DNA from: a phage
Reading direction: 5' to 3' (one strand)
DNA length: 64,000 nt
Assembly: GCA_033648345.1 (NCBI GenBank)
Contig: GCA_033648345.1_4121.1
The notes under the pieces were generated by a model that worked only from the letters and a program-made list of their open reading frames with translations, was not told the origin of the DNA and searched no databases. The position numbers and the translations under genes were made by a program. This document shows positions 19,912-43,416 of this stretch, one piece after another; within the stretch, counting starts at the first letter, position 1; the number at the start of each line of letters is the position of its first letter.

Positions 19912-22900
19912 ATGTATATCGATGCTTATATGGAACGTAAACGTACTGGTGATATTTTGCACGTAGCAGAACGTAAAAACGGTAAACGTATTCTACGTCA
20001 GTTGGACCCAGTATATGAATATTATGTTGAATCTCCTACTGGTGAACACAAAACAATTTATGGAACCAACGCAAAGCATTTGGAGTTTGAAACTCAATCA
20101 CAGATGAATAAAAGCGTTGAGCAACATAAAAATGAAGGTCTACGTATTTTTGAAAGTGATTGCAACATTACCTTCAAAACGTTGGCTAGAGAATACATGG
20201 GTAAAGGTTCGCCGGATTTGAACGTAGCATTTTTCGATATCGAAACCGACTTCCATAAGAAGTTTGGTTATGCTCCACCATCAGATCCATTCAACCGTGT
20301 AACTGCAATTTCTCTATATCAATCATGGACTGGTAAGGATTATGTACTTACTTTGCCACCAACTGATATGGAAATGTACGAAGCACAAGATATTGTTCGA
20401 CAGTTAAACGAAGAAACTAACGACCCTAACAGTACTGTCATCCTTTATACGGATGAGAAAGAAATGTTTATGGAGTTCTTTAGTCTAATCGATGACTCTG
20501 ATGTAATTTCAGGTTGGAACAGTGAATTCTTTGATATTCCATATATGGTAAACCGTACCAAGAAAATCTTCAACGAAGCAACTACTGCTCGTTGGTGTTT
20601 GTGGAATAAAAAACCAAATGCTCGTGAAGCTGATAACTTTGGTAAAACTGTAGTAACATATGATCTTATTGGTCGCGTACACTTAGACTATCTTGCTCTT
20701 TATAAGAAACATGCTGGTCAAGTTGAACAGTCGTACAAACTAGATTATATTGCTGAAAAAGTAACTAAAGAAAACAAAGTATCCTATGAAGGTTCATTGG
20801 ATAAACTATACCGTGAAGATTACATTACATTCTTGCGTTATTCTAAGCAGGATAGTATTCTTCTAAAGAAAATTGATGCTAAATGTGACTTTATCAACCT
20901 GCACAACCGTCTTGCTCATAAAGAATGTGTACTAATTAGTACTACAATGGGTTCGGTTGCACTAATCGACACTGCTATCATCAACCTTGCTCACAGTCGC
21001 GGTGAAGTTGTTTTTAACAAAGCACCGAAGGATGATTTTGAGTTAGATCCAGAGATGGAGTACTATGGTGAAGAAGGTGATGAAGAAGATGAGAAAATCA
21101 GTGCAAAAGCTGCTGGTGCATGGGTTCAAGATCCAGTTCTTGGCCTTGTTAGCGATTTGGGATGTACAGACTTTAACTCATTGTATCCAACTGTACTACG
21201 TACACTTGGCATGAGTACTGAATGTATTCTTGGACAACTTCGTCAAGACTACACTGATGCATATCTTGCTGCTAAAGTACAAGAGCAAAAAGCTAAATCC
21301 AAATCTAAAGCGTTTGAACCTGATTGGACCGCTGCATGGCATGGTTTATTTGCTGCTGTAGAATTTACAATGGTTCATGAAAAATCTGACAAAACTTTGA
21401 TTGTTGATTTAGAAGATGGTAGTTCGTTCAATGCAACTGGTAAAGAATTGTATGATATTATCTTTGCTGAAGACAGTACTATTGTACTAAGTGCTAACGG
21501 AACACTTTTTGATAAGTCTAAGTATGGTGTAATTCCAGATATTCTTACTCAATGGTATTCTGAGCGTAAAGCACAACAAAAAATGGTAATCGACTACAAA
21601 CACATGTACAGTGATGGGTGGGAATTCAATGGTTCTGAGAAGGTTGAACCTTTGCTATCTAACTACACAAGTGGTACAATGTTCCGTACAAACTTACATG
21701 ACAATGATCCTGTTTACCTATTACGTATTGCTATTGGTAAAGGTCAATGGGAAGAAGTTGCAAAACTCATTGTGGAAAATGGTTTAGTACTGAAAGATGG
21801 TCGTATTTTCTGTGCAACGGAAGATAAGAATTACTTCAAACAGCAAAGTGCATTCTGGAAACAGAACCAGCAAATTCGTAAGATTCTTCTAAACAGTCTA
21901 TATGGTGCACTATTGAACAAAGGTTCACGTTTCTTTGATAAGCGTTTAGGTCAGTCCGTTACCTTAACTGGTCGTTCTATGACTAAACATATGGCAAGCC
22001 GTATCAATGAAATCACTACTGGTGTTTATAATCACCAAGGTGGCTCTGTAATTTACGGTGATACTGACTCCGTTTACTTCAGTGTAACTCATTACCTGAA
22101 AGAACAAGGTATTCCATATAATCTTTCGAAAGAAGAAATCGTTGACATGTATATCAAAATCGGTGATGAAGTTGGTGAATCATTCCCTTCATTCATGAAC
22201 GAAATGTTCAATACTGGTATTGAGAAAGGTAAGATTGTTGGTGCAGACCTAGAGATGGTCGGTTCCCGTGGTCTATTCCTGAAGAAAAAGCGTTATGCAA
22301 TTCTCAAGTACTGGGAAGATGGTTTCCGTAAAGATGTTGATGGAAAGCCTGGTGAAATTAAAGCGATGGGTCTTGAAATTAAACGTTCAGATACGCCAAA
22401 ATACATCCAGAACTTCCTAGAAGAGACTCTAATTGCATTGCTGGTGGGTGAGTCTGAAGCTCAACTTAAACAGCGTGTACGTGACTTTAAAGAGGTATTT
22501 AAAGACATGCCTGTACACGAAAAGGGTTCACCGAAAACTGTTAAGAACTATACCAACTTAGAAGCAGAATATGAAGTTTCTGGTAAATGTAAAGTTGGTC
22601 ACGTATTAGCAGGTATTCAATGGAACCGTCTACGTGAAGTATATGATGACAAAACTGTACCTGAAGTAACTGACGGTACAAAAGTAATTGTATGTAACTT
22701 AAAAGATAACCCGATGGGTATCAAAGCAGTAGGTTATCCAATTGACTGTGTGGAATATCTACCTGAATGGTTCTTAGAACTACCATTTGATACAGAGAAA
22801 ATGGAAGAAATAGTTCTAACTAAAAAATTAGAAAACATTTTTGGTATTCTGGATATGGATATTGGTATTCATGAGAAAAGTACAGCAGCCGTTAATAACG

Positions 22901-22917
22901 GATTCTTCACCTGGTAA
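19912..22917 (+). CDS. 43: DNA polymerase gp43 (family B)
   Basis: Exonuclease motif FDIETD, FDIPYMVNR, KILLNSLYGAL, YGDTDS; colinear with T4 gp43. Confidence 0.92.
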   Translation: MYIDAYMERKRTGDILHVAERKNGKRILRQLDPVYEYYVESPTGEHKTIYGTNAKHLEFETQSQMNKSVEQHKNEGLRIFESDCNITFKTLAREYMGKGSPDLNVAFFDIETDFHKKFGYAPPSDPFNRVTAISLYQSWTGKDYVLTLPPTDMEMYEAQDIVRQLNEETNDPNSTVILYTDEKEMFMEFFSLIDDSDVISGWNSEFFDIPYMVNRTKKIFNEATTARWCLWNKKPNAREADNFGKTVVTYDLIGRVHLDYLALYKKHAGQVEQSYKLDYIAEKVTKENKVSYEGSLDKLYREDYITFLRYSKQDSILLKKIDAKCDFINLHNRLAHKECVLISTTMGSVALIDTAIINLAHSRGEVVFNKAPKDDFELDPEMEYYGEEGDEEDEKISAKAAGAWVQDPVLGLVSDLGCTDFNSLYPTVLRTLGMSTECILGQLRQDYTDAYLAAKVQEQKAKSKSKAFEPDWTAAWHGLFAAVEFTMVHEKSDKTLIVDLEDGSSFNATGKELYDIIFAEDSTIVLSANGTLFDKSKYGVIPDILTQWYSERKAQQKMVIDYKHMYSDGWEFNGSEKVEPLLSNYTSGTMFRTNLHDNDPVYLLRIAIGKGQWEEVAKLIVENGLVLKDGRIFCATEDKNYFKQQSAFWKQNQQIRKILLNSLYGALLNKGSRFFDKRLGQSVTLTGRSMTKHMASRINEITTGVYNHQGGSVIYGDTDSVYFSVTHYLKEQGIPYNLSKEEIVDMYIKIGDEVGESFPSFMNEMFNTGIEKGKIVGADLEMVGSRGLFLKKKRYAILKYWEDGFRKDVDGKPGEIKAMGLEIKRSDTPKYIQNFLEETLIALLVGESEAQLKQRVRDFKEVFKDMPVHEKGSPKTVKNYTNLEAEYEVSGKCKVGHVLAGIQWNRLREVYDDKTVPEVTDGTKVIVCNLKDNPMGIKAVGYPIDCVEYLPEWFLELPFDTEKMEEIVLTKKLENIFGILDMDIGIHEKSTAAVNNGFFTW

Positions 22918-37457: not shown

Positions 37458-37513
37458 TCCCGCTGTACATGATATAATGTGTCGTATGACAACAACAAGG
37501 AAGTAAAATAAAA

Positions 37514-37942
37514 ATGGAATTAAGATCTAGTATTGCTTTTATCTGTGACCAAGAAACGTTAGATGTAATTGATGTATTGTTGAATGATGATGGTATTATG
37601 GATGACATGGTATCTTCACTTGACTATATACCTGAACTAGAAACTGACGATACTAATGTTTGGAGATGTAATATTGACACTAATTCATGGATTAATATCT
37701 ATGAATTGCAAACCAGAATTGACTCGAAAGTTGAATCATTAAAATATGATATCATCTATGCAAGTACTGATACTACAACGTTTATTGATGTTGTTAGTCT
37801 TAGTGGTAATTTTGATTCTTACTTAGATACCGATGTTGATAAGATTCAAGAAATGTGTGAAACGTATGGTCTTGAATTCTATGGTACATCCGATGAAGAT
37901 GAAGAAGATTACTACGATGAAGATGAAGATTCCCAGTACTAA
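37514..37942 (+). CDS. hypothetical acidic protein
   Basis: 142 aa with poly-acidic C-terminus. Confidence 0.45.
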   Translation: MELRSSIAFICDQETLDVIDVLLNDDGIMDDMVSSLDYIPELETDDTNVWRCNIDTNSWINIYELQTRIDSKVESLKYDIIYASTDTTTFIDVVSLSGNFDSYLDTDVDKIQEMCETYGLEFYGTSDEDEEDYYDEDEDSQY

Positions 37943-37951
37943 GGAGATGAG

Positions 37952-38449
37952 ATGAACGTATTAACCCCAGAAAATAATTCATTTGATATGGATTTAGTAA
38001 CTGAACACATTCCATCAGAAATGTATTGTGTTTTAGATTTGAGTCCAAACGGTGACTCTGACTTTTATTTTCGCCACATTTTGAACACTGTATCATTTAA
38101 TAGTATCAGTGCTGATTTGCAGATTGGTGAAAAGGTTATCCAAGTACCATTGGGTTGGCAAATCATGTTGGGTGATGAAGAGACTGGTATGGTTGAGATG
38201 TGTACCATTGAAAACATTCTTAATATGAAAGAACCAAAAGCTTTTGTTTACAATCCAATCCGTTCGATGTATCCTAAGTTCGAACCTGTAAAAGTACTGC
38301 GTGTATTCGCACTCACTACTAAGTGGCAGATCCCTATGCTGCCTAAGAAGAACTTACTATGTGTTCCTCTGCACAGTGGTGATAATCCACCTTGTGTTTA
38401 CTTTGCAGATGAGAACGAGAAAATTCAAGATTTGTATCTAGGAGTGTAA
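37952..38449 (+). CDS. hypothetical protein
   Basis: 165-aa ORF in early gene array. Confidence 0.45.
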   Translation: MNVLTPENNSFDMDLVTEHIPSEMYCVLDLSPNGDSDFYFRHILNTVSFNSISADLQIGEKVIQVPLGWQIMLGDEETGMVEMCTIENILNMKEPKAFVYNPIRSMYPKFEPVKVLRVFALTTKWQIPMLPKKNLLCVPLHSGDNPPCVYFADENEKIQDLYLGV

Positions 38450-38451
38450 TA

Positions 38452-39297
38452 GTGTTAGATTTCAGTAATATTAAAGCTAAGTCAGTAGACGAAAACGATA
38501 AACCAACCCAGCATACATTTTCTATTGCTGAATTTCTAAAACATATTGACCGTGCAGATTACAAATACTATAATGACATGACCGAAGATGAGCGTAAGGA
38601 ATTTACGCCTTATACTGTACTTCGTTGGGTAAGTTCACTTGATGACTCACTTCAAGTAACTTTCCCTAGTAGTAAAGTGGAAAACGTATTTGGTAAGTGG
38701 AAAGCTGGTGGCAAAGAAGCACTCACTGAACTTGTCAAAGAACTCAATAGTACTGGTGTTAATGTAACATCAGTTACTAAGTACTGTCACAGTGACTATG
38801 ATTGGCGTATCAAGTTTGCCGTACAAAGTAATGATGATGCTAACAAGTTGATTGCAGCAATGACCGAATTTAGTATTGCTGGTGGACAGATTATCTCATT
38901 GGTTGACAGTGACGTTGTACGTTATCAGTTGATTATGTTGAATGATATGGTTAATGATGGGTTCTGGGATATGAAAGAACACCCTGAACTTGTATATCAA
39001 CTACTATGTTCTGTTCATGATATGTTGGGTGGTAAGGAATTGCCACGAAACTGGTTAAACTTTTCCAAGAGTTTTAAGCGTGCTAACAATGAATTATTTG
39101 AACTCATTAAAAGTACACAGCCAGATTCAATCGCAACTCAAATGAACGAAGATGAATATAAAATTGTTTTGTTGCAATATAACAAAAAAACATTCGAGTC
39201 TTTCCTTGAAGACATAGGTTTGCAAGAGAAAGAAATGAAATCAATGATGAAATTATTTAAAGAAGAATGTAAGAAATATGGCAAAGAAATCAAGTAG
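38452..39297 (+). CDS. hypothetical protein
   Basis: 281-aa ORF, probable GTG start. Confidence 0.45.
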   Translation: MLDFSNIKAKSVDENDKPTQHTFSIAEFLKHIDRADYKYYNDMTEDERKEFTPYTVLRWVSSLDDSLQVTFPSSKVENVFGKWKAGGKEALTELVKELNSTGVNVTSVTKYCHSDYDWRIKFAVQSNDDANKLIAAMTEFSIAGGQIISLVDSDVVRYQLIMLNDMVNDGFWDMKEHPELVYQLLCSVHDMLGGKELPRNWLNFSKSFKRANNELFELIKSTQPDSIATQMNEDEYKIVLLQYNKKTFESFLEDIGLQEKEMKSMMKLFKEECKKYGKEIK

Positions 39298-39988
39298 TCC
39301 CGTATACAAATGTAAGTTCTGTGATAAGGAATTTAAACGCGAAGACACAGTTAACACACATAAGTGTGTTAAACGTGACCGCTACGAAGATCGTGATAGC
39401 CGCCCCATGAGGGAGGCTTTTCGCATTTATATGCAATTCATGGAGTTAAACCATTTCCCTTTCAAGAAGGGAGTTGAACCATTAATGGCTTTTATAAAAT
39501 CAAAGTACTTTAGTGATTTTTATGATTTTGCAATTTATTATTTGAACAACCGTGATATTTTAGATATTGATGGTTTTGTAAAAAGTCTAATTGTAAGAAA
39601 CCGTCCTATTATGGAATGGAGTACTTATAAAGCAAAGGATGAATGGATATTAGATTGTATTCGTTCTGAATCTCCCAATGCTGCGGTTTCCCGTAGTGTT
39701 GTTGCGATGGTGGAATGGGGTCAGAATCTGAACTTGGAGTGGAATAAGTTTTTTTCCAATGTTAGTTCTGCCCGTGCAATTGCATGGATTGAGAGTGGTA
39801 AGATTTCACCTTGGATTATCTGGTTAGCACCAAAAGAAAGTACTAATAAGTTTTTCAAGAATCTCTCTAACTCTGAAATCGAGTATATACTTAAATACAT
39901 TGATCCTAGTTACTTTGAGGTTAAAACTATAAAGTACAAAAAGGAATGTGATGAAATAAAAAGTATGCTACGTGAGGCTGGATTATGA
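39278..39988 (+). CDS. hypothetical protein with N-terminal C2H2-like zinc finger
   Basis: YKCKFCDKEFKREDTVNTHKC. Confidence 0.45.
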   Translation: MAKKSSSPVYKCKFCDKEFKREDTVNTHKCVKRDRYEDRDSRPMREAFRIYMQFMELNHFPFKKGVEPLMAFIKSKYFSDFYDFAIYYLNNRDILDIDGFVKSLIVRNRPIMEWSTYKAKDEWILDCIRSESPNAAVSRSVVAMVEWGQNLNLEWNKFFSNVSSARAIAWIESGKISPWIIWLAPKESTNKFFKNLSNSEIEYILKYIDPSYFEVKTIKYKKECDEIKSMLREAGL

Positions 39989-40314
39989 ATGGAAAAAGTA
40001 TATATAATAAAATACCAGAAGGGTATGTACCTGTGCCTAAAGCAGATAAATCTAAATCTTTATCATTGCTTAGACAGGGTTCTATAACTGAAATTACACT
40101 TGATGGTAAAACCTTTCAGGTGCACGATCCTGTTCGTGTAGAAAAAATTATCAGTATGGTTGAAAGACATGAGGAAAGATTCTTTGGTCTAAGTCAAGAG
40201 TTGTCAAAGACCAAACAAAAGTGTACAATGTTAGAAAATCAGGTAACCAAATTATCTAACACTGTAAACAAATTGCAGGAGCAAATCAAAAATGCAGGAT
40301 TCGACAAATTCTAA
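39985..40314 (+). CDS. hypothetical coiled-coil protein
   Basis: 109-aa ORF overlapping neighbours. Confidence 0.4.
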   Translation: MNGKSIYNKIPEGYVPVPKADKSKSLSLLRQGSITEITLDGKTFQVHDPVRVEKIISMVERHEERFFGLSQELSKTKQKCTMLENQVTKLSNTVNKLQEQIKNAGFDKF

Positions 40315-40930
40315 TTCGTACCGTAAAGCACGAACAGATATCGACATTGACTTCAAAGATAGTAAGTCAGTGATTGCACAGCTTCCTTGTGTGCGAAGTA
40401 CAGAAAAAATTACGGAGGATGGTTTAATCCCCCATAACAGTGGTGTTCATTTTGATAATATACCAATTGACCCTATCACTGGTTTAGCCAGCATACAATA
40501 TAAAGAAGCCGAACGCTTGGGATATCAAAAGGTAGATATCCTGTCACAATCGGCTTACCAGTATGTTCGTGATAGAGCACATTTAAAAGAACTAATGAAT
40601 CAGGAACCTAATTGGGATCTTCTGTTAGAACCAGAAATAGTTGAACATCTTTCACAGATTAAAAAACACGTTACATTATTAAATGTGTGGAAACCTAAAT
40701 CCATTGATGAACTTGCAATGTTTATTGCAATGATTCGTCCTGGAAAAAGGCAGTGCCAAAGTATGAATACATGGAGTGAAGTTGAATCCACTATATGGGA
40801 TTACAGTACTATTGGCACAGACCAAGCAGGAAATAAGTTACGATATTTCAAAAAGCCACATGCTTATGCATACAGCTTAATGATTGTAGTTCAACTTAAC
40901 GCTTTAGTTGAACATCTTACTTCTTCTTAA
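40292..40930 (+). CDS. small protein with DNA polymerase III alpha (DnaE) palm-like motifs
   Basis: Ordered blocks DIDIDF, HNSGVHF, LGYQKVDILSQ, ELAMFIAMIRPGK parallel DnaE PDFDVDF, HAGGVVI, AGLVKFDFLGL, ALVALFRPGP. Confidence 0.45.
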   Translation: MQDSTNSNSYRKARTDIDIDFKDSKSVIAQLPCVRSTEKITEDGLIPHNSGVHFDNIPIDPITGLASIQYKEAERLGYQKVDILSQSAYQYVRDRAHLKELMNQEPNWDLLLEPEIVEHLSQIKKHVTLLNVWKPKSIDELAMFIAMIRPGKRQCQSMNTWSEVESTIWDYSTIGTDQAGNKLRYFKKPHAYAYSLMIVVQLNALVEHLTSS

Positions 40931-41270
40931 GAGCCACATTACGACGCTTGATGCGTTTTTGTGGTAAATCACTTAAAGAAACTACTGGACCACAAACGAA
41001 ATTCACCGCAGGGGTATCGAATCTCTGTGTGTAAGGTTCAAATTTCTCCATCTCTTCTTGGAAGAATAGACAGACTGGAATTGACCTGTTGCTTTGCCAC
41101 CACCAATCATGTGCTATACCCAACAATTCATCTTGCATTGGTTCATCCATATCATCAAAGCAGTAAAGAGTAGTATACTGTTTACTTTTTATCTTGATAA
41201 TACCAATGAAAGTTTTACCATTACACTGAACTACCGTGATAAATGGTGGAATAGTATTATATTGATTCAT
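40917..41270 (-). CDS. hypothetical protein (lone minus-strand gene)
   Basis: 117-aa ORF, Trp-rich with basic C-terminus; divergent from a late-promoter-driven gene. Confidence 0.4.
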   Translation of the reverse strand: MNQYNTIPPFITVVQCNGKTFIGIIKIKSKQYTTLYCFDDMDEPMQDELLGIAHDWWWQSNRSIPVCLFFQEEMEKFEPYTQRFDTPAVNFVCGPVVSLSDLPQKRIKRRNVALKKK

Positions 41271-41327
41271 ATGAGTTCCATAAATATTAGTATAAATTTA
41301 TACCTATTATTTATGGAAGGAAAAACT

Positions 41328-42305
41328 ATGGCTCATCACGGCGTGTTTATGTACCCTTATAACCAAGAAGTATCATTGGGCAATTTTAATATGCCATATA
41401 GCAATGAGAAACTTACAATATACAGAGGTGCAAATAACAATTTATCATTCACAGTGCATAACGCTGATGGAAAATATACATTACTAAAAGATAACGAATA
41501 TCTAACATTCATGATTTTTGATGCTAGAAACAATACTAAATTATTCGATGTAGTTTTGGATAAACAAAAACCATCATGGCTATCAGAAAGTGGACAAGCA
41601 AGACAAACATTAGGTAATAGTAAAAAAGTATATTATGGATGTATTGTTCCTGCTGGTGTAATTCAGGATACTAGTCCTGGTTCAAAATATAGATGGAGTA
41701 TTACTAAAGTAACAATGGATGGTTCCTTGATTGAACCTACACAGTACTTATACACTGGTCTTGATTATGAAGCCTCTGCTGAATTGATAATTTCCGACCA
41801 AGCTGCTCCTGTGTTTGTGCCAAGTATTGAAGTATCTGTTAATAAAAACCCAGCATGGACTACCATCAAACGCTTGTATCATGAACCAATCGCTCGTGGC
41901 GTTATTGGTGAATTTGATATAATGGCAACATCTCCCCTTCCTGCACAAATGCAGTACGGATTAGTTGATGGTCTTAGTACTATTGCAATGTACTTTGATA
42001 AATTCATTGGTAGAATTCAATTACAAGGATGTTTGTGTAATAACGTACCAACTGATAACGAAAACTATAAATGGTTTATTGTTAAATTGGATGGTAAAGA
42101 ATATATCGAAAATGATATTGATGAAAATGGATTCCCTAAAGCGTTAGATGGGATTCAAGCATTTAATTTTAAAGGTAATTACATGTGGTTGCGATTGGTT
42201 GTTTGTATTCATCCTAAGATCGTTCCAGTTCCTTATGACTATGCGGCAGTAAGAAAAGTCTATGACCCACTACTGTCAGTTCCTAAAATTTTGATTCGCA
42301 GGTGA
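41328..42305 (+). CDS. putative late-expressed structural protein
   Basis: ATG 41328 with GGAAGGA RBS; TATAAATT late-promoter-like upstream. Confidence 0.45.
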   Translation: MAHHGVFMYPYNQEVSLGNFNMPYSNEKLTIYRGANNNLSFTVHNADGKYTLLKDNEYLTFMIFDARNNTKLFDVVLDKQKPSWLSESGQARQTLGNSKKVYYGCIVPAGVIQDTSPGSKYRWSITKVTMDGSLIEPTQYLYTGLDYEASAELIISDQAAPVFVPSIEVSVNKNPAWTTIKRLYHEPIARGVIGEFDIMATSPLPAQMQYGLVDGLSTIAMYFDKFIGRIQLQGCLCNNVPTDNENYKWFIVKLDGKEYIENDIDENGFPKALDGIQAFNFKGNYMWLRLVVCIHPKIVPVPYDYAAVRKVYDPLLSVPKILIRR

Positions 42306-42330
42306 GACAAAACAAGTGTTTGTGCTATAA
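42302..42330 (+). promoter_or_regulatory. early-type promoter upstream of primase gene
   Basis: gtgagacaaaacaagtgtttgtgctataat. Confidence 0.5.
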
Positions 42331-42360
42331 TCATTTGTGAGAAATAACAAGGATTAAATT

Positions 42361-43416
42361 ATGAACGCTGTACAAAACATCATGGCACAAATCATGAATG
42401 ACCCAGTACCAGGAATTGGTATGTGGACACATCACAATTGTCCTGCTTGTGTGTTCCGTGGTCATTCACGCCCCGATACTAAAAATCGCGGCAATCATAT
42501 GTTTAATGCAGATGGTTCTGTTTCTTATAACTGTTTTAACTGTAGTCTAAAAACTGGGTGGCAACCTGGAAAATATATGAGCAAAGATATGGAGTCTTTG
42601 CTCATTTCTTTTGGTGCACAGGATAAGGAAATAGAACTAGCTAAATTTTACATTAAAGAAATGGTTGATAGTGGAGACTTTGCAGAACAAGAAACTACTG
42701 CATCTAAACTATATCAACGTGTAACTGTTCGTGAATTACCACCGAACTCAAAAACATTCTGGGAATGGGCATCGTTACCAGAAGAGCAAATACCACAAGA
42801 ATTTATTAGTGTTCTGAATCATGTGAATGAGCGAAATCCATATCTATTAGATTTAGAATTGTATTGGAGTCCAGCTAAAGAACATAAAATGTATGACCGA
42901 TTTATCATACCATACGTTATGAACGGTAAAATTATCGGATATACTGCTAGACACAAACTTAAAGACCCAGGAAGTACCTATCGTTTTATTAATCAGGTCA
43001 GTACAAATATTCTATATAATTATGATCTGTTACAAGATGAACGAATTAAAACTATATTAGTTTGTGAAGGTCCAATGGATGCAGCACTAATGGGTGGTGT
43101 TTCTGCAAATAACTTTAAATTGTCAGCAGTACAAATAGATGTACTTAAAGCTGCACAAGAAAAAGGTAAAAAGATTGTTATCGTACCAGACCGTGATAAG
43201 GATGGGTTACAAACAATCGAACAAGCACTAGAATATGGATTTAGTGTTTCTTTCCCAGATTTTGGGGCAGTACGTGTTGGAAGTACTATACGTCACATTA
43301 AAGATTTTGACGAAGCATGTGCTAGATTTGGAAGATTATTTTGTTTACAACTGATACATGATAGTATAGTTGACGAGCCTTTCTATATTAAAGCACAAAC
43401 GGATAAGTGGATGTAA
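42361..43416 (+). CDS. 61: DNA primase gp61
   Basis: N-terminal Cys/His zinc-binding region; TOPRIM motifs CEGPMDA and VPDRDKDG. Confidence 0.85.
   Translation: MNAVQNIMAQIMNDPVPGIGMWTHHNCPACVFRGHSRPDTKNRGNHMFNADGSVSYNCFNCSLKTGWQPGKYMSKDMESLLISFGAQDKEIELAKFYIKEMVDSGDFAEQETTASKLYQRVTVRELPPNSKTFWEWASLPEEQIPQEFISVLNHVNERNPYLLDLELYWSPAKEHKMYDRFIIPYVMNGKIIGYTARHKLKDPGSTYRFINQVSTNILYNYDLLQDERIKTILVCEGPMDAALMGGVSANNFKLSAVQIDVLKAAQEKGKKIVIVPDRDKDGLQTIEQALEYGFSVSFPDFGAVRVGSTIRHIKDFDEACARFGRLFCLQLIHDSIVDEPFYIKAQTDKWM

Follow-up and report, generated by a model that had tools for sequence, protein, structure and literature searches.

The 64,000-nucleotide stretch of phage DNA analysed here (GenBank assembly GCA_033648345.1, contig GCA_033648345.1_4121.1; hereafter the window) contains a gene for a protein of only 212 amino acids that carries motifs of DnaE, the DNA polymerase III (Pol III) alpha subunit. 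This raises the question of what so short a relative of a bacterial replicase does in a phage that also encodes a family B polymerase. C-family polymerases are the replicases of bacteria; they are 900-1400 residues long and are unrelated to the replicases of eukaryotes and archaea. The homology, fold, split point, co-occurrence, natural fusions and purifying selection observed in this analysis suggest, with a probability of about 80%, that the protein is the C-terminal unit (C-unit) of a two-gene minimal C-family DNA polymerase typical of Rak2- and PA5oct-like ("group 2.2") jumbo phages.

The split two-gene enzyme is already known. Iyer et al. 2021 (Viruses 13:63; PMC7824862) described a split minimal Pol III alpha in group 2.2 jumbo phages, in which the N-terminal half is the nucleoside triphosphate (NTP)-binding subdomain and the C-terminal half, which binds Mg2+ and template, is encoded far away. 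They proposed that this enzyme may cooperate with the family B polymerase. The genes discussed here (phrog_11778 for the C-unit and phrog_11127 for the N-terminal unit, or N-unit) are the same entity, with no difference in kind, and PHROGs and RefSeq already label the C-unit "DNA polymerase". The additions made here are modest: the exact split point, a residue map, a structure-based check, the ratio of nonsynonymous to synonymous substitution rates (dN/dS), and fused forms from metagenomes. Single-chain fused forms are not mentioned in the text of Iyer et al., and the split enzyme is absent from a 2026 survey of bacterial polymerases.

The C-unit retains the catalytic residues of the DnaE palm. 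An initial annotation had picked out four motif blocks occurring in DnaE order in the 212-residue protein; all four are found in that order, and a fifth collinear block lies beyond them, F186-KKPHAYAYS, which corresponds to F756-NKSHSAAYA of Escherichia coli DnaE (Table 1) and is also matched by a collinear fragment on Mycobacterium tuberculosis DnaE1 (residues 774-787). The DIDIDF strand holds two catalytic aspartates and a third, DnaE-specific one (D20), while the last member of the catalytic triad, D82, is on a second palm strand together with the adjacent lysine, K80. D401, D403 and D555 of DnaE, which bind the catalytic metals, do not vary at all within the C family, and D405 is likewise fixed in all DnaE groups (PMC3919608). 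The fingers are present as a much reduced module with the RPG motif and the O-helix histidine; H760, the DnaE equivalent of this histidine, is the proposed steric gate against ribonucleotides (PMC8485763). The spacing between the RPG motif and the O-helix has shrunk from about 114 residues in DnaE to about 34. In a 27-member alignment with identities down to 40%, D16, D18, D20, H48, G51, K80, D82, R149, P150, K187, H190 and Y194 are invariant, as are G77 and L84. The C-unit covers only DnaE residues ~396 to ~775 and has about 18% of the length of DnaE. The DnaE thumb (~420-505), which lies N-terminal to the strand equivalent to HNSGVHF, appears as a gap in the hhalign alignment and is deleted.

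The relationship of the C-unit to C-family polymerases is confirmed by both statistical and structural evidence. Searches with the single sequence gave little outside its own family: the only Pfam match was DNA_pol3_finger at E 0.04, below threshold, and there was no match in the PDB with phmmer or in NCBIfam. The same Pfam family matches at the ELAMFIAMIRPGK region, again below threshold, in 11 of the 27 family members. The C-unit matches phrog_11778 over its full length (E 2.2e-106), and the family profile searched against PDB sequences gave four collinear fragments on M. tuberculosis DnaE1 at E 1.2. Profile-profile comparison and structure prediction bear out the proposed link to the DnaE palm. 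Against a core profile built from E. coli DnaE and eight phage DnaEs (30-45% identity), the C-unit family alone was aligned by hhalign with a probability of 92% and E 6.5e-7, residues 47-152 corresponding to E. coli 505-642. An AlphaFold2 model of the C-unit has a mean predicted local distance difference test score (pLDDT) of 92.1. In a Foldseek search of the PDB with this model the nine best matches are all Pol III alpha chains, with no further match at E better than 2. The model resembles the palm and fingers of solved Pol III alpha and PolC structures.

The C-unit belongs to a large and widespread family. Its members are mostly about 190-220 residues long, with 789 matches among 90% clusters and 512 cluster representatives in a 50%-identity library (E up to 0.001). 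They come from phages of Enterobacterales, Pseudomonas, Vibrio, Xanthomonas and Salicola and from hundreds of metagenomic clusters. Protein identity is 95.3-95.8% to the orthologues of 121Q and PBECO4 (RefSeq "DNA polymerase") and about 40% to those of the PA5oct group, and both the length and the catalytic residues are kept down to about 32-40% identity.

The other half of the palm is encoded by a separate gene. Only 15 residues of the C-unit precede the DxD strand. The protein has no counterpart of the palm's helical half, with its GRGS loop, which in E. coli DnaE (R362-G363-S364) is N-terminal to that strand. This NTP-binding half (PF07733, DNA_pol3_alpha) is not in the same polypeptide, as there is no PF07733 match in the C-unit, and a search of the window with a GS-motif regular expression and tblastn found no open reading frame (ORF) with the motif. 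A near-identical genome, TH47, was assembled and all of its ORFs were scanned for the N-unit. It has a 172-residue ORF on the minus strand (195079-195594), reading ...FWGLGRGSSVASYCLFLIDLHMVDSLKYKLDVNEFLKW, that contains GLGRGSSVASY. This protein is collinear with DnaE from G359 to residue 394, its final NEFLKW corresponding to DnaE 389-394, and it ends at the point where the C-unit takes over in DnaE numbering. It scores 36.4 bits against Pfam DNA_pol3_alpha (cut-off 23.9; E 5.8e-9) and matches phrog_11127. The TH47 C-unit (225996-226631) is on the same strand. Since the window corresponds to TH47 269028..203700, reversed, the N-unit is about 8 kb past the right end of the window; it shares the strand of the C-unit and is about 30-32 kb downstream of it. 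In phage fEgEco12 the N-unit is g421 ("DNA-pol3-alpha domain-containing protein") and the C-unit is g381, so that this genome also encodes the two units separately and far apart. The GenBank records of GAP32 and 121Q label the N-unit "DNA polymerase III alpha subunit". The two units together have 384 residues, about one third of E. coli DnaE.

The neighbourhood of the N-unit gene is kept across very distant jumbo phages. In fEgEco12 (PP777464.1 261600-264162) and Atu_ph07 the N-unit is followed by a small hypothetical ORF, a GroES-like gene, a small ORF and a clamp-loader subunit. Phosso has the N-unit, a hypothetical ORF and the GroES-like gene, and then hypothetical ORFs only. The N-unit is a standalone protein in both Atu_ph07 and Phosso.

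The two units occur together. Phage records with the C-unit number 96 and those with the N-unit 101, the latter including a few matches to full-length DnaE. Six genera appear among the top ten for both units, and five of these have equal counts, Klebsiella being the exception. The counts are equal for Escherichia (34), Pseudomonas (11), Salmonella (8), Erwinia (8), Xanthomonas (4), Yersinia (4) and Cronobacter (2), and for Klebsiella they are 11 C-units and 10 N-units. In all genomes with both positions listed, the two genes share a strand, and the distance separating them ranges over 14-116 kb. Xoo-sp13 has the shortest, 14 kb; it is about 30-34 kb in Rak2-like phages and 43 kb in the PA5oct-like ones, and SCTP-2 has the longest, 116 kb.

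In some metagenomic relatives the two units are naturally fused, and they are joined at the predicted junction. An exhaustive profile search found C-unit matches in the C-terminal part of two longer proteins, P0183 (375 residues) and P0263 (336 residues), in which GVGRGSSSAS...KEFIK is followed directly by ...IADFDIDTKN. P0270 and P0271, from other samples, are also fusions; P0183, P0270 and P0271 are 375-376 residues long and 78-81% identical to one another. The ORF of P0183 is continuous on a 5.85-kb contig (L022 519..1649, from the Logan SRR16020819 metagenome). Its residues 10-180 match the TH47 N-unit (E 3.7e-15) and residues 190-375 match the C-unit (E 2e-30). The fused gene is at the syntenic position of the C-unit, with a homologue of the convergent 117-residue ORF (Table 1) downstream. 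The fused forms have the same two modules and motifs as the split enzyme, with an identity of 37% between their C half and the C-unit and of 34.5% between their N half and the TH47 N-unit; they differ in that both halves are in one ORF, and they come from AT-rich (27% GC) contigs of uncultured phages. The standalone C-units closest to the fused C half are P0272-P0280, at 51-59% identity. Fused proteins, N-units and C-units were combined in one alignment, whose composition was adjusted locally until both halves aligned, although the last ~17 residues of the N-unit are still scattered in the version used for AlphaFold2. With hhalign the combined alignment matches DnaE at a probability of 98.8% and E 8.7e-17, P0183 106-328 corresponding to E. 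coli DnaE 319-642, and here too the thumb appears as a deletion.

These features suggest how the enzyme might work. The C-unit would provide four palm beta-strands with the three catalytic aspartates and the conserved lysine, together with the reduced fingers (RPG motif and O-helix with the steric-gate histidine), and the N-unit would provide the helical half of the palm, whose GRGS loop would hold the triphosphate of the incoming nucleotide. The two proteins are predicted to assemble as a heterodimer, the GRGS loop and the three aspartates forming one Pol-beta-like active site over which the O-helix, with H190, would close upon the incoming deoxynucleoside triphosphate (dNTP). Such an enzyme would carry out templated primer extension with dNTPs, probably in a distributive manner if no other phage protein tethers it. 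Because the phage has a complete T4-type family B replisome, the biological role is most likely that of an auxiliary polymerase in replication or repair, for example in gap filling or primer extension.

Several observations weigh against a two-gene polymerase. The N-unit is outside the window, and its presence in this exact genome is presumed from relatives that are 98-99.8% identical. The N-unit has a residue other than arginine where DnaE has R390. The N+C structure was modelled through a natural single chain, P0183, that is about 35% identical. The shortening of the fingers affects the segment from RPGP to FNKSH, including YQEQ and LRRAMGKK; with the thumb also absent and no clamp-binding motif apparent, neither stable binding of primer-template nor processive synthesis is assured. 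The PHP domain, OB fold and C-terminal tau-binding domain of DnaE are likewise lacking, and neither unit has a Pfam match to PHP, HHH or OB families. Separate genes for the thumb, the YQEQ/LRRAMGKK segment of the fingers, and the PHP, OB and C-terminal parts were not found in the TH47 genome with regular expressions and phmmer searches using E. coli DnaE segments, which have low sensitivity and picked up the N-unit alone. We found no biochemical or experimental report in the literature for any member of the family.

The loss of so many domains could also mean that the complex of the two units is an active nucleotidyltransferase that is not a templated DNA polymerase, such as a terminal transferase, an enzyme that modifies primers or ends, or one that makes nucleotide second messengers for use in phage-host conflict. 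The absence of the thumb, most of the fingers, the clamp-binding motif and the OB domain fits such an enzyme, as does the complete family B replisome that the phage already has. However, the retained RPG motif, H190 and Y194 are invariant, and their DnaE equivalents point towards the base pair being formed and the sugar moiety of the incoming dNTP (PMC8485763). Both genes are also found among replication genes, with a primase and a DnaB-type helicase near the C-unit and a clamp loader near the N-unit. We consider a non-polymerase function improbable.

It is much less probable that the 212-residue protein is catalytically competent by itself. The initial annotation suggested a minimised Pol-beta-like nucleotidyltransferase, and part of a Pol-beta-like core is indeed present: the C-unit has all three metal-binding aspartates, K80 and the steric-gate histidine, and it is predicted with confidence to fold on its own. 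The protein is not self-sufficient, however, since the NTP-binding half of the palm, with the GS motif, is missing from it. In DnaE this helix and GS loop are upstream of the DxD strand, and in the phages they are supplied by a separate, conserved and co-occurring gene of 172 codons that is fused to the C-unit in some relatives.

The other possibility raised in the initial annotation was a remnant of a C-family polymerase. Decay of a formerly full-length enzyme that no longer has a function can be set aside almost entirely. The small fraction of DnaE that is left, with most domains gone, is what a remnant might look like. The selection data do not fit decay: between the C-unit and its 121Q orthologue (nucleotide identity 87.6%, protein identity 95.3%) dN/dS is 0.043, comparable to the 0.037 of the neighbouring primase. 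The catalytic residues are invariant, and the length and catalytic residues are preserved across many phages and metagenomic clusters, as the 512 cluster representatives indicate. A chance occurrence of four short motifs in DnaE order within an unrelated protein, to which the weakness of the single-sequence and PDB searches might point, is already refuted by the profile, fold and conservation results.

The proposed split polymerase differs from other C-family enzymes in size and architecture. Compared with the DnaE and PolC replicases (E. coli DnaE, 1160 residues; Taq Pol III alpha, 2hpi; Geobacillus kaustophilus PolC, 3f2b), it lacks the PHP domain, thumb, clamp motif, OB fold, tau-binding domain and most of the fingers, and its palm is divided between two polypeptides. 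Full-length DnaE-like polymerases are also encoded by phages, including Streptomyces, Mycobacterium and Pseudomonas PB1-like phages and those of group 3.2 such as Bacillus phage G. They too belong to the C family, but they are ~920-1160 residues long (eight sampled records), serve as the main polymerase of the phage, and are 30-45% identical to the E. coli DnaE core, while the C-unit is detectable by profiles only. The DnaE of jumbo group 3.2 has an N-terminal PHP domain and an architecture close to that of the host's own polymerase (Iyer et al. 2021; PMC7824862). A C-family enzyme of ~384 residues, cut through its catalytic palm, shows how little may be needed, and it bears on ideas that the C family grew from a small Pol-beta-like nucleotidyltransferase. 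It also places a polymerase of bacterial type and one of archaeo-eukaryotic type within one viral replisome. The fused single-chain forms would be the easiest constructs for an assay of the predicted polymerase activity.

Table 1. Coordinates of the C-unit, its motifs and other features of the window
Feature	Position	Strand	Remarks
C-terminal unit of split minimal Pol III alpha (binds Mg2+ and template), 212 aa	40292..40930	+	ATG start
DIDIDF strand, aa 16-21	40337..40354	+	D16/D18/D20 = E. coli DnaE D401/D403/D405; PDIDxDF in DnaE profile (hhalign)
HNSGVHF strand, aa 48-54	40433..40453	+	H48 = DnaE H511, G51 = G514 (hhalign)
LGYQKVDILSQ strand, aa 76-86	40517..40549	+	K80 = K553, D82 = D555 (third catalytic Asp) (hhalign)
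ELAMFIAMIRPGK, aa 140-152	40709..40747	+	R149-P150-G151 = DnaE R639-P640-G641, start of fingers (hhalign)
FKKPHAYAYSLMIVVQLN helix	40847..40900	+	DnaE "O-helix" F756-NKSHSAAYA; H190 = H760 (direct comparison with E. coli DnaE)
Family B DNA polymerase	19912..22917		Pfam DNA_pol_B_exo1 and DNA_pol_B
Five consecutive ORFs (165, 281, 236, 109, 212 aa)	37952..40930	+	2-nt gaps or short overlaps
236-aa protein, phrog_11058 (function unassigned there)	39278..39988	+	C2H2-like zinc finger at residues ~10-34
117-aa ORF converging on the C-unit	40917..41270	-	overlaps last 14 nt of the C-unit; annotated in 121Q (gene 17)

The window comes from a jumbo phage with a T4-like replisome. It is 99.5-99.8% identical to Asteriusvirus jumbo phages of Escherichia (Ecwhy_1, fEgEco12, BF17 and others), which are Rak2-like myoviruses of ~350-385 kb, and ~83% identical to 121Q and PBECO4. 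The phage has its own family B polymerase, as the initial annotation had noted, and genes annotated as a clamp, a gp32-like single-stranded DNA-binding protein, a UvsX-like recombinase, a primase and a DnaB-like helicase are nearby.

The tight spacing of five consecutive ORFs suggests that they form one translationally coupled operon ending in the C-unit. The C-unit has an AGGAG about 10 nt 5' of its ATG, and its first 23 nt lie within the end of the preceding ORF. A scan of 37500-42500 for sigma-70 promoters and terminators gave results no better than shuffled sequence. The ORFs of 165, 281, 236 and 109 residues have no informative annotation in Pfam, PHROG or NCBIfam. The 109-residue product is a coiled-coil protein that is called "virion structural protein" or "tail needle protein" in relatives.

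The zinc-finger protein may assist the mini polymerase as an accessory subunit, or its gene may simply be one more core gene of the clade. It is found in 94 phage records, and its count equals that of the C-unit in all ten genera common to both searches. Its gene, g379 in fEgEco12, is just upstream of the C-unit in Vibrio phage 2.275.O, in Rak2-like phages, where the 109-residue ORF separates the two, and in PA5oct-like phages, where they are 11 nt apart. In two metagenome contigs (L025 and L026) the two genes share 20 nt. It is not adjacent to the C-unit in SCTP-2, Xoo-sp13 and RAS14. A bolder version of the two-gene polymerase, which we regard as speculative and rather unlikely, is that the mini Pol III is a true second polymerase of the replisome that shares the labour with the family B enzyme (primer extension, lagging strand, gap filling), with the zinc-finger protein replacing the missing thumb or DNA-binding domains in a multi-subunit enzyme. 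If so, the fused forms of 336-376 residues would be the smallest self-contained C-family DNA polymerases known and would offer a minimal, tractable system for studying the core of the bacterial replicase and its origin in evolution.

Downstream of the C-unit, the convergent 117-residue ORF is under purifying selection, with a dN/dS of 0.051 relative to 121Q. At this site fEgEco12 annotates a plus-strand ORF of 70 residues (g382), which is probably a miscall. Near the end of the fEgEco12 genome (PP777464.1 21000-27300) there are about 30 tandem, often overlapping ORFs of ~65-85 residues on one strand, all annotated as hypothetical, and this run looks like an expanded paralogous gene array.
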